64,000 bases of DNA from Octopus vulgaris (taxonomy: Eukaryota), in assembly GCA_951406725.2 (NCBI GenBank), contig OX597815.1, forward strand, positions 169,942,001 to 170,006,000, written 5' to 3'. Below the pieces are notes generated by a model, which saw only the letters and a program-made list of their open reading frames with translations, was not told the origin of the DNA and did not search any database. Positions 10,641 to 59,573 of the stretch are shown piece after piece. The position numbers were made by a program, and so were the translations under genes. Positions within the stretch are counted from its first letter, which is position 1; each line of letters opens with the position of its first letter.

Positions 10641-10848
10641 ATTTATTATATAGAAGGAGCTTCTACAGGACTAGAACTGTTTCATTCAATAGAAATCTTC
10701 AGGAAGCAGGAGCTTCCTGAAGATTTCTATTGAATGAAACAGTTCTAGTCCTGTAGAAGCTCCTTCTATATAATAAATTAATTTTACTCTGCTATGTATT
10801 GAGTACCTTATTTACTGTGGTTAACCCCGAATCAACCCGGGACCTACA
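10641..10848. mobile_element. Fold-back mini-element (PLE/retrozyme-like) in (TA)n
   Basis: Perfect 67-bp inverted arms at 10641-10707 and 10712-10778, 4-nt spacer, ~70-bp unique tail, (TA)n on both sides. Confidence 0.85.
10708..10764 (+). ncRNA. Type I hammerhead ribozyme
   Basis: Stem I AGGAGCTTC/GAAGCTCCT (9 bp), CTGAAGA 10717-10723, stem II TTC/GAA with a U-U at its base, GAAAC 10736-10740, stem III ACAG/CTGT, cleavage triplet GTA 10753-10755; mirror copy on the minus strand with a 5-bp stem I. Confidence 0.8.
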
Positions 10849-10907
10849 TATATATATATATATATATATATATATACGCGAGAATGAAGCAACAAGAATG
10901 GATAGGT

Positions 10908-10998
10908 TTTTAGTACAATCGTTTCATACAAGGACAGGTTTTATTAAAAGTTGCAAAAATTACAGCATATAAACGTGTCCCGTACTCATCAGCTAAAA
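10908..10998 (-). ncRNA. Type I hammerhead ribozyme (mirror of 12988-13078)
   Basis: Reverse complement of the plus-strand motif, within the left arm. Confidence 0.8.
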
Positions 10999-12515
10999 TA
11001 CATGTGAGTTCTCTAGACATCCTAGTGGTTGAGGCTATACTCATGAAGTAATGTAGATAATTAAGTAACATAAACAGATTTCAAAAGTTCATTAAAGTTC
11101 TTTAAAGATGATGTACAGTCTTATCACAGAATTTTAAAAAAGTCTTAATAGCATCACAGAGAAGGTGACCCAATCCATAGTGCACATATGAATTTCCAGA
11201 GATATGATGAGGGATTACATACTCACAGAAAGCAAATTTATCCATTGTTAATTACAACGAGGTGGGTTTCAATTCCTGCTTATTAGCATTACAGAGAGGG
11301 TGAATTAATCCTTTGTATAGATGCACAATTTCCAATGGTGTAGGTGTAAATTTCCAAGGAATTTCATATTCACAGGCGATAAATTTATCAATGGTTGAAC
11401 ACAATGAGGTAGGTATCAAATCTTGCTATATGATTAGGTATTTGCCACATTAATCACATTACTGCTATTTACAAGAGGCTGTAGCTATTTAACTTTTAAG
11501 GCTGAAGGGCTTACTAGAGCTGTATAGAATAGAAGAGGGAAGGGCATAGAAGAAAAGAGAGAAAATAAAAAAGAGAGAAAATAAAAGAGGAGGGAGCAAA
11601 AAGGGGGGGGGAGGGGGACTCAAAGAGAAGAGAAAAGGAAAAAGAGAATAAGAAGAAGAAAAAGAAAAAAGAGAAAAGAGAAAGAAATAGGGAAGGAAGG
11701 GAAAAAAAGAGAAAAAGAAGAAAAAAAGAAAAAACGAAAAAAGAAGAAAGAAGAAAGAAAAAGAAAAAAGGGTTCTAGTTATACAGAAGAATTAGTAGAC
11801 GACAAGTCTGGTTTTAGTTTACAGGCATCTAGGAATTAGAGGAGAATATTATTCTTTGACCAGTTAAAACAGCTAATTTATTGCTGTTGAAACCAGCTAT
11901 GAATTTAAAGAGAATCTAAAGAGATAACACAGTTAGGGGTTTCGGGGTCAGATGCTAAAATCACCAGAAAATACATTAGGGAAAACTAGGTATAATCTTA
12001 TCAAAAAGTCATTAAAATTTACTTATTTAATTTATTCATTTTATTGTCTTAAGGAGTTGCCGTTATTATTCATACATTGACGGACTACAGGTCAAATCTT
12101 AGAAGATCATTTAAAAGGTGTTAGGGGATTGTCTATCATAATGAAGATAATCATATTATCACCGAGGGAATAGTCTCATTTATTTAATTTTGAAGTAGAA
12201 TTATGGGTCTATAGTAACTCATTTTAATTAATTAGAGTTATGCTAATTAAATTAGATTAAGTTGGGAACTAAAATTAAAAATTACAATTAAGATTTAAAA
12301 TTAAGAATTTAAAAATTTAAAAATTGTGAGTTTGAAATTAAATAAAGCCTCAATTAAGCAGCGAATAAGTGCTATTCATTTCCCTGTTCTCAAAAACTGA
12401 TGCAGATATAGGAAAAAGATAACTGTAGTGTGAGAACTCTTAGTTATCTACTTAAAGCAGTGCTATACCAGTAGAAAACAGGTTATATCAATCTATCTAG
12501 TTACGAATATTCTAA

Positions 12516-12751
12516 TCATTTAAAATATTTTAAATTCTTCAATTTAGCGTGGACACAAACTTGACCTAGTTCGATATGGTTATTCAATAGGTTTCTATGT
12601 TTTCTATGCTTTAGAATTTCATATGTCTCCATGGAGCATAGTTGGCAACCAACCCTACTATTTTTATACGGAATTGCTCTCCTAACTATTTCCCAATTAA
12701 GGTTATAATTTTTATTATTATTTTTGAGTTCCCAGATTTTGTTTGAAAGTG
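12516..12751 (-). pseudogene. C-terminal part of a PLE GIY-YIG endonuclease
   Basis: STLSNKIWELK...NWEIV...Y.....CQLCSMETYEI...LLN...EL...CVH fits the PLE endonuclease C-terminus with CxxC...CxH; the ORF's first codons come from the inverted arm. Confidence 0.8.
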
Positions 12752-12987
12752 TGCTTTCTGTGAGTATGTAATCCCTCATCATATCTCTGGAAATTCATAT
12801 GTGCACTATGGATTGGGTCACCTTCTCTGTGATGCTATTAAGACTTTTTTAAAATTCTGTGATAAGACTGTACATCATCTTTAAAGAACTTTAATGAACT
12901 TTTGAAATCTGTTTATGTTACTTAATTATCTACATTACTTCATGAGTATAGCCTCAACCACTAGGATGTCTAGAGAACTCACATGTA

Positions 12988-56527: not shown

Positions 56528-56787
56528 TACGCCCTTTTCAAGCCTAGCCAGGCACATGGACCCGGTTTCCCCGTTTCTGTGGCGTATGTGTTCCCCACAG
56601 TTGGACGGGACGCCAGTCCATCGCAACGTTACTCAAGAAACAGGAAGAAAGAGTGAGAGAAAGTTGGGGCAAAAGAGTACAACCGGTGTTTTCGCTCAAT
56701 AAACACACACAACGCCCGGTCTGGGAATCGAAACCGCGATCCTCCGACCGCGAGTCCGCTGCCCTAACCACTGGGCCATTGCGCCTC
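56528..56787 (-). mobile_element. SINE family C variant
   Basis: Similar to 23550-23838. Confidence 0.85.
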
Positions 56788-58559
56788 CTTGGTGTTGATT
56801 TACTGTAAGCAAATAAAACCCATTTCCGAGTCGTCTCTCTTACAGTACATGTTGCTGATGATAGCCAACAAGCTAGAAATGCATTCACAGATTTCACTAG
56901 AGATCACCTAGAAATGACTGTTGGTGCTTTTGAACACCCATTGCTTAAAACGAGAAAGGCTTTCCTCGGCAAATTAGCAGTGAATGCGGCCTTTGTACAG
57001 GTCAAGTATGTCCCAAACACATTTGAACTGACCTCAACGTTCAATTGACAATACTGCTTTCACTTACCAACTACATATAAAAGAAAAATAGAGCGGTTTA
57101 AATATATACATATAAGATACATATGTGATACGAAATAGACCTATAAAAGACTCACTTGTCTCTATTCACAATATACTTTAAGTGGAAGGCTATAACTAAA
57201 TTTGATTGAACTCTCTTTGTTAAGATTTCGTGACAATGGTTATTGAAGCTTACGTCTATCAAATGAAAAAAGACAAAAACAAAAAAACAAACAATTATTC
57301 ATTAATAGTGAGTGTTAATGAACTACTTTTAACAATGTTACCTAAGAAATAACGTTCGTAAAATATTCTTTCTATGTTTTAATATACTATTGTTTATAAC
57401 AATATAGACAATAGTAATAATAACAGTAATAAAAAGTAAAAGAATAACAAAGAACAAAGCAAAACAAAGATCAAAAATAAAAATGAGTCATTGAAGAAGC
57501 CTGTATGTGGTCACCCTAGTAACTAGAAATAGCAGTCTCTGACTACATCCAGAGGGTCTTTTTAAAGCAAAAAAAAGAAAAAATAGAAAACGAAAAGAAG
57601 GGCATATTGAATAGCTTTGGGATAAATATGGTCCAAAACCCCTTTAATCATTAATCTTTTAGACCCTTTTAATCATAAGTCTGTTCAATTATAAATGACC
57701 AGGAGTGAAACAACAGCAGCAGCAGCAAAGACTGTTACAAAAAAACAAAAACAAAAAAAGAAACAGACATTAACGTTAAAACAAAGTAGTTGTAGTAGCA
57801 ACAACAACAATAACAACAATAGAAACAAACCCCACGGCAGCAGCAGCAACTACGCCAGCATGGAGTGGCACATCCTTCTGCACGATCTACTTGAGTCCTG
57901 TTTACTGCTTGTACTTTACTAACCTCGTTAATAACGAGCAGAAGCAAGCACACCAATTCACCTCTCTTTTTGACCCGGACGGAATTCAAGTTTAAAGCGA
58001 GCACTACCACCGCACCGCCACCGCCACCACCACCACCACCACCACCACCACCATCCATCACCACCACCACCGCCGCCACCGCCGCCGCCGCTGCCATCCC
58101 CGACGTTATCAATGATAAGAGATTCTCATTATTATTGTATTTTATGGCATAAAAATTACCATAGTTTACTGTACGCACCCCCAATTTCAGCAGCGCACAC
58201 TCAAATGTAAATAAAAAATTCAAGTGTATTAAAGTTTTTTTGAGAGGCTCAGCTTCGCACTAAGGACCGACGTAGAGCAAATTTTTGAAACAATTCTTTG
58301 TCGCCCTGTTCCCCCCAAAATAAAATAAAATAAAATAAAATAAATAAACAAAATAAAAATAAAAATGAATGTGCGTCATATATGTCATTAAAAAAATATT
58401 ACGGGAACTTTGTTGTTTAGTTTCATATCTTTTCATACGACGGTAAGATAACATATACCTCACGTACGCACACACACACAACACACTGCTCCAGGAGAGA
58501 TTGCAACCCCTAAATCAAAATCAACGCGCAACCTCTGCATCGACATTTGTAATGATTCA

Positions 58560-58990
58560 TCGTTCCAGGTGCATATTACTAAGTTGGCAATTAAATGCAG
58601 ACAGCTGGCCGGATGGAGCTTTAGAACTTTCAGAAAGAGAGAACAGGAAACCATAATGGTCCCCTGGAGAACATTTGTCGTCAGCCGTCCAGACTACAGC
58701 TCCCAATTATGGTTACCACTCTGTAAAATTAATGGCAGAATTCGAAGCAATCCAACGAAGCTACACCAAAATTGTCTCAATGAGATGTGTCAGCTACTGG
58801 AGGAGGCTGAAAAAGTTAAGATTCTACTTCCTGGAACGGAGTCGAGAAAGATATGCACTGATGTATAATATCTGGAAAATTCAGGAAGGATTTATATTAA
58901 ACTTTACCAATGGAAGTTGCCTAATAGTAGAATGGCGCACCACTGCATCGTACCAAAAGTCCCAACATTGCCATCAGGATACGGGACCAT
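58560..58990 (+). pseudogene. CR1/L2-group LINE RT C-terminal relic
   Basis: FVVSRPDYSSQLW and EAIQRSYTKI...SYWRRLKKL...LERSRERY...IWKI, frameshifted. Confidence 0.75.
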
Positions 58991-59109
58991 AAAGCAATAA
59001 CCAATATTATGATGAATGGAGAAAAACTTGGCGACATAGACAACTTTAAAATATCTAGGATCTAGTTTGAGCATGGACAGCAGCTCAGTTTTAAACCAAT
59101 CCCAAACAG

Positions 59110-59573
59110 TACCTTGTTTACATTATTTACATTTGACGGATATTTGTTCTCATCTTGTTTGTTGTTAACACAACGTTTCGGCTGATATACCCTCCAGCCT
59201 TCACCAGGTGTCATGGGGAAATTTCGAACCTGGGTTCTCATTTCTCTTAACTACTACGCCATATGCCCGTGGGCGTAGTGGTTCAGAGAGCGCGGGCTAC
59301 TGGCCCCAAGATTCCTAGTTCGATTCCAGGCAGTGACCTCAATAATAATAATAATAATAATAATAATAATAATAATAATAATAACAACAACAACATCGAA
59401 AAATACCTTAGGAATGATAACGCAGGTTCGAAATTTCACCAAGACACCTGAAGGCTTGGAGGGTATAGCAGCCGAAACGTGTTTACAACAAACAAGATGA
59501 GGACAAATATTCGTCAATTGTAAATAATGTAAATAATGTACATAATTCTTCATCTCTTAAACATAGAACTGTA
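59110..59573 (+). mobile_element. tRNA-headed SINE with PLE-type hammerhead tail and 5' inverted duplication
   Basis: 12-bp TSD AATCCCAAACAG (59098-59109 and 59574-59585); A box TGGGCGTAGTGG, B box GTTCGATTCC 59318-59327; (AAT)n; inverted arms at about 59117-59242 and 59411-59535. Confidence 0.85.
59167..59212 (-). ncRNA. Minimal hammerhead motif with a core substitution
   Basis: GACAC-CTGGTGA-A-GGCTG...CAGCC-GAAAC-GTT-GTGTT; palindromic stem III AACGTT; the plus-strand mirror at about 59443-59483 has small deletions. Confidence 0.65.

Follow-up and report, generated by a model that had tools for sequence, protein, structure and literature searches.

Results and Discussion

Five Fold-Back Elements in the Window

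The window analysed in this study is a stretch of 64,000 nucleotides of Octopus vulgaris DNA (GenBank assembly GCA_951406725.2, contig OX597815.1, positions 169,942,001 to 170,006,000 of the forward strand), part of a 2.8-Gb genome, and it contains five fold-back elements (E1–E5), all of them very probably by-products of the insertion of Penelope-like elements (PLEs). Self-BLAST of the window showed an inverted repeat in each, at 10641-10778 (E1, arm identity 97%), 10873-11234/12752-13113 (E2, 99.7%), 27502-27843 (E3, 95%), 32906-33124 (E4, 83%, a figure which includes the spacer) and 59109-59245/59410-59541 (E5, 86%). The best pairwise similarity among the five was only E = 0.56 and they thus have no common sequence. 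An earlier sequence-only reading of this DNA had described five sequence-unrelated inverted repeats with one arm extended by a unique tail, and both features were confirmed.

The tail-less inverted arm of E1 (10641..10709, minus strand) carries a hammerhead core starting at 10702, with a predicted cut at 10664, and its outer end enters (TA)n. The tailed arm (10710..10846, plus strand), the pseudo-long terminal repeat (pseudo-LTR) end of a Hydra-type PLE, shows a core at 10717 with the predicted cut after 10755, a non-genomic G, a likely transcript start at 10711, and a tail at about 10779-10846. In E2 the long tail-less arm (10873..12750, minus strand) is a 5'-truncated Hydra-type PLE copy composed of the endonuclease end, the 3' region and the pseudo-LTR with a hammerhead at 10998-10908; a C-terminal GIY-YIG coding remnant at 12516..12746 (minus strand) matches the end of an intact open reading frame (ORF) at locus L092. 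The short tailed arm (12752..13227, plus strand) has a hammerhead at 12988-13078 and a tail at about 13114-13227, followed by (TA)64. E3 consists of a tail-less inverted arm (27502..27671, minus strand) with the mutated hammerhead core CCGAUGA at 27631-27625, and of a tailed arm (27674..27990, plus strand), the pseudo-LTR of a Hydra-like PLE, with a core at 27714, the predicted cut after 27786 and a tail at about 27844-27990.

In E4 the tailed arm (32850..33041, minus strand) is the 3' end of a Neptune-type PLE, with a tail at about 32850-32910 and a minimal-hammerhead candidate of the U3:A8 variant (core at 33037, predicted cut at 33007), and the tail-less inverted arm (33042..33119, plus strand) is without hammerhead. 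This element had been taken to start at 32765; its family ends at about 32850, and 32765-32849 lies outside the family. E5 is framed by a 12-bp target-site duplication (left copy 59098..59109, plus strand; right copy 59574-59585). Its tail-less inverted arm (59110..59270, minus strand) has an internal deletion and the mutated core CUGGUGA at 59207-59201. A tRNA-like head (59271..59340, plus strand), part of a Poseidon-type PLE pseudo-LTR, follows with A-box and B-box motifs, a likely RNA polymerase III (Pol III) promoter, and then the tailed arm (59341..59572, plus strand), containing (AAT)n, a hammerhead with a 3-nt core deletion at about 59448 and a tail at about 59532-59572.

Flanking (TA)n was found on both sides of E1, E2 and E3 and, as a long run, on one side only of E4, while E5 sits in unique DNA and not in a microsatellite. 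The claim that four of the five lie in microsatellites therefore held fully for three elements and on one side for the fourth. The fraction of the window within 10 nt of a TA run is 4.7%.

Hammerhead Motifs

A strict type I hammerhead descriptor found three cores in the window (both E2 arms and the E3 right arm) versus 0.07 in 100 shuffles. A relaxed descriptor, which was set after the elements had been inspected and permits the bulge and the U3:A8 variant of PMC4209133, gave six matches, every one within E1–E5, versus 0.275 (maximum 2) in 40 window shuffles. The statement of the sequence-only reading that four elements bear hammerheads on both strands stood for two of the five: consensus cores on both strands are present only in E1 and E2, whereas one of the two E3 cores (left arm) is mutated and both cores of E5 are damaged in the window copy, one by the 3-nt deletion and the other by the change to CUGGUGA. 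E4 does carry one candidate, on a single strand and within its spacer.

The motifs depart from the consensus in several details. In the E1 hammerhead a U.U replaces G-C at the base of stem II, and stem III has 4 bp. The long stem I of the E4 candidate is partly made by the junction in the window copy and measures 3 bp in family copies. Cores are well preserved in the E1 (30/30 copies) and E3 (26/30) families and intact in just 10/30 E5 and 8/30 E4 copies. No hammerhead family appeared in 150 of the 279 rows of an Rfam scan of the window, these rows being low-complexity matches such as miRNA-like ones on microsatellites, and minimum free energy folding of three hammerheads was uninformative (z from −0.19 to −1.18). 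No tandem hammerhead arrays occur in the window, and direct E2 neighbours, several kb apart, were found in 2 of 85 matches.

Parent Families and Clade Assignment

Longer copies joining a PLE GIY-YIG endonuclease were found for all five families, bearing out the PLE origin put forward earlier. On this basis each element is read as the 3' pseudo-LTR of its own multi-copy PLE family, three of them Hydra-type or Hydra-like, one Neptune-type and one Poseidon-type, with clade names taken from motifs read by eye and not from a reverse transcriptase (RT) tree.

The intact parent of E2 lies at locus L092, in the order pseudo-LTR, tail, 953-residue ORF, 3' region, pseudo-LTR, tail and (TA)n, the unit measuring about 4.7 kb. 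The ORF (2004-4943 of the locus, minus strand) is an intact Hydra-type RT-endonuclease with RWK, DKT, YRDD and CxCx5C motifs, placed between two direct hammerhead pseudo-LTRs. Its two asparagine-rich stretches recall the N-rich inserts of rotifer PLEs in PMC3846280. At locus L091 two near-full copies stand head to head beside a tandem pseudo-LTR.

For E1 the same Hydra-type endonuclease end, including CxCx5C, was found upstream in five loci (L312, L314, L316, L317 and L320), connected through about 3 kb of microsatellite-rich DNA. A master copy sought by read-through past the E1 tail was not found. E3 copies run into a GIY-YIG frame (Pfam E = 0.0012, below the cut-off), and the linker cysteines are missing in the one E3 copy read. 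E4 follows a broken ORF with RT and CX4CXXC-GIY-YIG parts (locus L204) and is Neptune-type by motif. E5 adjoins directly the point where a GIY-YIG frame ends; this frame shows no zinc-finger linker, and E5 is Poseidon-type by motif.

All 30 positional E2 tail ends enter TA, and the E1 tail end followed by AT gave 2627 exact matches versus 69 for the other endings searched. Exact matches numbered 436 for E2 tail ends and 1029 for E5 heads, and first-look candidates 2820 for E3 and 690 for E4. Tails measure 33-151 nt across the families.

Two earlier candidates were discarded: E1 as a 137-nt stand-alone element, as long copies exist, and the full ORFs in L307 and L315 as E1 parents, as they belong to other PLEs nested in E1 microsatellites (L315, 2575-6482, plus strand; L307, 4052-6748, minus strand). 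In the nested PLE of L315 two frames overlap; Pfam finds nothing in the first (557 aa), and the second encodes RT and GIY-YIG. The long E1 3' region (L301, L307, L315, L317 and L320) consists largely of microsatellite interrupted by short unique islands; one of these islands occurs as a fold-back of its own in L301. The region attracts nested insertions, including those of its own target type. Beside the E1 copy of L200 lies an intact LINE-like endonuclease-RT frame of 1043 codons (3225-6353, minus strand).

Centres, Outer Ends and Orientation among Copies

An inverted arm was present in 29 of the 30 best E1 copies, and these 29, at 99% identity, showed 14 different centres. Some centre types recur (9/29), and some centres hold 10-14 unrelated bases. 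Of the first 100 among the 2627 E1 tail ends, 92 formed a positional sample, which a script classified into 41 long copies, 31 fold-backs, 14 without core and 6 others; when re-read by eye it comprised 43 long copies, 43 short ones with an inverted arm, 5 single ones and 1 tail joined to a long inverted arm. Among the long E1 copies an inverted partner was found in 17 of 28 informative 10-kb loci.

The E2 positional set comprised 30 copies, of which six had the 5' end out of view; an inverted arm was present in 17 of the other 24, one spurious match being counted as none. The E2 inverted arms end exactly at the tail start in 15/17 copies, and those of E3 within 5 nt of it in 18/19. Inverted arms were found in 19 (E3), 18 (E4, two doubtful matches excluded) and 20 (E5) of the best 30 copies of each family, and centres vary across E2–E5 copies too. 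The orientation of E2 neighbours among 85 matches on C1-C2 was head-to-head in 28 pairs, tail-to-tail in none and direct in two. Flanking duplications of 8-14 bp were noted in 15/30 E5 copies, a figure given without chance control.

The outer ends coincide with two constant A/T-rich sites, one where the tail ends and one where it starts. Because centres vary from copy to copy, outer ends are fixed and either arm may be the longer one, the fold-back is not inherited as a unit and likely forms afresh with every insertion.

Short Copies and Likely Promoter Starts

Most of the 43 short fold-backs among the 92 E1 ends are centred at, or just downstream of, a single position, which lies 29 nt after a TATA-like motif of the long copies. 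The base preceding this position is T in long copies, and genome-wide matches showed G 323 times versus C 65 times (G after G excluded). Copying of capped RNA yields an added G. The pile-up position is thus likely the transcript start, i.e., the RNA 5' end, as judged from sequence. A similar 5' wall in E3 is accompanied by TATA-like and initiator-like motifs and by a less marked G excess; E4 has a 5' wall that lacks such motifs.

In the E5 family the wall coincides with the start of the tRNA-like head: 23 of 30 head-anchored copies are without upstream PLE sequence and 7 continue into it. The head directly follows the PLE endonuclease gene (531 exact junction matches). A and B boxes that fit strict consensus sequences were present in 11/30 heads, always 34 nt apart, and in 0/2000 shuffles. 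A tRNA-like A/B-box head within a Poseidon-type pseudo-LTR likely gives rise to these copies, which resemble short interspersed elements (SINEs). The short arms begin upstream of the predicted cut sites, so that their templates were likely uncleaved.

Proposed Mechanism and Its Alternatives

The reading that we favour, with moderate confidence for the mechanism as a whole, is head-to-head insertion of the 3' ends of five PLE families, both target strands priming on one RNA. The endonuclease would nick both target strands, mostly within (TA)n, and on one element RNA the tail end would be the priming site of one 3' end and the tail start that of the other. Both cDNAs would extend toward the RNA 5' end or halt early, and their ends would be joined via short microhomology, small palindromes or inserted bases. 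The hammerhead would be a passenger, copied into both arms because it sits just upstream of the tail-start site. Short copies of the E1, E3, E4 and E5 families would likely halt at a pseudo-LTR transcript start, which for E5 is likely the tRNA-like Pol III promoter. The majority of copies are expected to be inactive from the moment of insertion. A wider version, in which fixed-site twin priming on one RNA is combined with pseudo-LTR promoters that also supply short uncleaved hammerhead RNAs, including a Pol III tRNA-headed one, so that the E5 family would be a Penelope-mobilised SINE, is put forward tentatively and is less likely than not to hold.

Arm lengths speak against copying of the tailed cDNA alone. 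Of 17 E2 copies, the tail-less arm exceeded the tailed one in 8, matched it in length in 4 and fell short of it in 5; a 15-copy set which includes the window E2 gave 6, 4 and 5, respectively, and in the window E2 itself the tail-less arm measures 1872 nt versus 358 nt for the tailed one. The tailed arm was reduced to the tail with a tail-less arm present, i.e., the arms did not overlap, in 6/92 E1 ends, and likewise in 3/42 selected E1 loci and 5/30 selected E3 loci; lone tail-less arms were found in 5/42 selected E1 loci. Among 96 readable fold-backs, a mix of positional and selected loci, the subfamily base of the two arms agreed in 94, which indicates one RNA or one source locus. Non-overlapping arms and arm concordance together make it likely that one RNA is primed from both target strands. 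A Poseidon PLE studied in vitro was reported to cut the two strands and extend each of them, to begin reverse transcription at two sites that flank the tail, and to rely mainly on uncleaved RNA (PMC11167929); the genome data fit the use of both tail-bounding start sites in one event. The formation of PLE inverted ends is called unresolved in PMC8557442 (section 15).

Several observations weigh against this reading or parts of it. The opposite strand of hammerhead stem I could have served as template for the extra G of E1, and the base at the same place in E3 was G in 13, T in 9 and A in 8 of 30 copies, several of the G's fitting microhomology. E2 shows no 5' pile-up, and TATA-like motifs are common in AT-rich DNA and may be there by chance. 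ARAGORN calls no tRNA in the E5 head (0/9 loci), and an Rfam search of the head gave no tRNA match. A Pfam search of the E2 ORF gave no match, so that the clade names come from motifs. The scan of 30 larger loci revealed neither an RT nor a full-length parent for E1, and none was found for E3 or E5, where only the endonuclease part turned up. Lastly, if perfect palindromes were inserted and then lost part of one arm, symmetric length differences and tail-only arms would arise as well, and deletions are plausible for palindromes.

This last point leads to self-priming, put forward for PLEs in PMC3846280, in which the cDNA would fold at a short palindrome near its 3' end and copy back to the tail start, with later centre deletions producing asymmetry. 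It explains the arm concordance (94/96), and it predicts what is seen where equal-length arms, or perfect centres, lie on natural palindromes in the E1, E2 and E5 families. However, secondary deletion would be needed wherever the tail-less arm is longer (8/17 E2 copies, and 1872 vs 358 nt in a window E2 whose arms are 99.7% identical), as well as for tail-only arms beside complete tail-less ones, and centres with 10-14 unrelated bases exist; we consider this route rather unlikely, and a mirror-junction test was symmetric (6 vs 7) and does not separate the models. Two separate pool RNAs, one per target strand and then end-joined, would account equally for the symmetric arm lengths, would suit a protein predicted to be a dimer (PMC11167929) and would accommodate locus L256, where a short arm is joined to a longer one. 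Subfamilies at about 30:70 would, however, give an estimated 40% or so of discordant arms versus the 2/96 observed, and in both discordant cases the inverted arm matches the tail haplotype. Such an origin is improbable and would require that a single source locus prevails in each germ cell. Loci L211 and L339, considered as proof of two RNAs, were rejected in the arm-concordance analysis.

Priming of both target strands on one RNA also has to be set against two explanations of another kind. The sequence-only reading had seen in these elements a population of non-autonomous mini-PLE or retrozyme families spreading as fold-back units and yielding double-stranded RNA (dsRNA) or self-cleaving RNA from either strand. 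The abundance of short fold-backs (43/92 E1 ends), the recurrence of centre types (9/29) and the well-preserved cores of E1 (30/30) and E3 (26/30) agree with it; against these stand centres and left ends that differ among near-identical copies, long coding PLE copies in every family, the lack of tandem hammerhead arrays in the window and the low share of intact cores in E5 (10/30) and E4 (8/30), so that the idea is largely refuted and very improbable. That the palindromes are assembly or library artefacts can be given a negligible probability. The arms of E2 are 99.7% identical, as an artefact would be, and no contig from four DNA runs spans the stretch compared; yet the arms of E1, E3 and E5 have diverged by 3-14%, E5 is framed by the 12-bp target duplication and outer ends obey fixed element sites. 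Furthermore, contigs from three further DNA runs contain inverted/forward E1 arm joints (15 of 23 joints shown), which argues that the fold-back form is no assembly artefact.

The elements are by-products of PLE integration, not retrozymes or a new class of self-copying or mini-elements. Ordinary PLE biology explains a genome full of short (TA)n hairpins that annotation tools would file as MITEs or SINEs. Long hairpin dsRNA from read-through transcription of a copy is possible, and copies transcribed in this way would provide dsRNA on which editing or silencing could act; in such read-through RNA, pairing of the arms would likely trap the ribozyme. Fixed-site twin priming on a single RNA, if true, would answer an open question in PLE biology, and a tRNA-like promoter in a PLE pseudo-LTR, if true, would extend SINE-type parasitism to PLEs. 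With thousands of near-identical copies and an intact ORF, twin priming and self-priming are directly testable against each other in this genome.

Other Features of the Window

Older inverted pairs lie by microsatellites at 33497-33583/33949-34035 and 34411-34671/35004-35270, with related copies at about 28105-28384 and 28845-28989. They belong to multi-copy families (1787 candidates), the copies of which have a CUGAUGA box on one strand, and the pairs at 33497-35270 are probably further PLE ends. The element at 49040-49990, with inverted ends of about 225 nt (90%) and several genomic copies in which these pair 0.8-1.3 kb apart, appears to have more in common with a terminal-inverted-repeat element than with a PLE scar. 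An AT-rich palindrome (54 nt, 89%) is located at 62258-62311.

By eye, coding remnants at 44038-44859 (plus strand), 58452-58992 (plus strand) and 15547-15858 (minus strand) resemble 3' ends of non-LTR retrotransposons, and those at 21507-22309 (minus strand) and 62529-63516 (plus strand) are Mariner-like transposase remnants. Two abundant dispersed SINE-like families (70-88% identity) are present as well, e.g., at 10166-10522, 36186-36587, 39748-40137, 45077-45468 and 53557-53971.

Comparison with Known Systems

The inverted arm, the one-sided tail, (TA)n targeting and opposite-strand hammerheads are all already published. Inverted 5'-truncated copies with a one-sided tail and a microsatellite bias are typical of PLEs (PMC8557442), flanking inverted repeats of variable size have been reported in them (PMC2377424), and opposite-strand hammerhead pairs 100-700 bp apart are described in PMC4209133. 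Numerous active PLE and unclassified SINE families figure in a paper on repeat annotation (PMC13282606), and the terms searched led to no passage in it on fold-back architecture. A literature search whose scope left out subscription papers and Repbase gave no match for twin priming in Penelope or for a start-site pile-up with an extra G, and no title or abstract combining a SINE, Pol III or tRNA-like head with a PLE. It may be that these families or motifs already figure in the supplementary material to PMC8557442 and PMC4209133.

Animal non-LTR retrozymes (bioRxiv 10.64898/2026.07.22.740005) share with the present elements a type I hammerhead, an origin from PLE pseudo-LTRs and short non-coding copies. 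Retrozymes, however, require tandem units, i.e., direct repeats with a hammerhead per unit, whereas E1–E5 are single inverted pairs.

In L1 twin priming both target strands prime on one RNA, and an inverted 5' segment with a microhomology joint results, as proposed here. What sets the present families apart is a constant second priming site and arms that overlap in most cases, whereby sequence is duplicated as a hairpin; the copies with non-overlapping arms resemble L1 twin priming in this respect too.

E5 resembles the TRIMp3 elements Helenus, Ajax and Cassandra (Kojima 2024, PMC10886601), which are among the LTR elements known to have small-RNA promoters in terminal repeats, and tRNA-derived SINEs, in having a tRNA-like A/B-box segment in a terminal repeat and short non-coding copies. 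It differs in that the head lies in a PLE pseudo-LTR, right after the endonuclease gene, and the short copies show integration features of PLEs and not of LTR elements or LINEs.

The minimal PLE hammerheads (Cervera and de la Pena 2014, PMC4209133) are type I motifs in pseudo-LTRs, with the same opposite-strand arrangement. Shared details are an extra base before stem II, the U3:A8 variant (E4) and a palindromic stem III (E4 and E5). Unlike them, E2 and E3 have a long stem II and E1 has a 4-bp stem III with a U.U stem II base.

The likeness to the Hydra clade as described in section 11 of PMC8557442 (RWK, DKT, CxCx5C linker, CxxC and CxH around the endonuclease, hammerhead and (TA)n targets) is full for E2, applies to the endonuclease part for E1 and is partial for E3. 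Hydra elements are generally below 3 kb, while the E2 unit is about 4.7 kb with asparagine-rich stretches and E1 has a microsatellite-rich 3' region of about 3 kb.

With the canonical endonuclease-containing (EN+) PLE unit (Craig et al. 2021, PMC8557442; Arkhipova et al. 2013, PMC3846280; Schostak et al. 2008, PMC2377424) the families share a head-to-head inverted copy, a tail at one end, 5' truncation, target duplications, palindromes and microhomology at the centre, and a promoter and transcript start in the pseudo-LTR. Unlike that unit, whose tails are 30-40 nt long, the present families have tails of up to 151 nt; many of their copies consist of the pseudo-LTR only and are piled at one 5' position, and thousands of young copies permit junction statistics.

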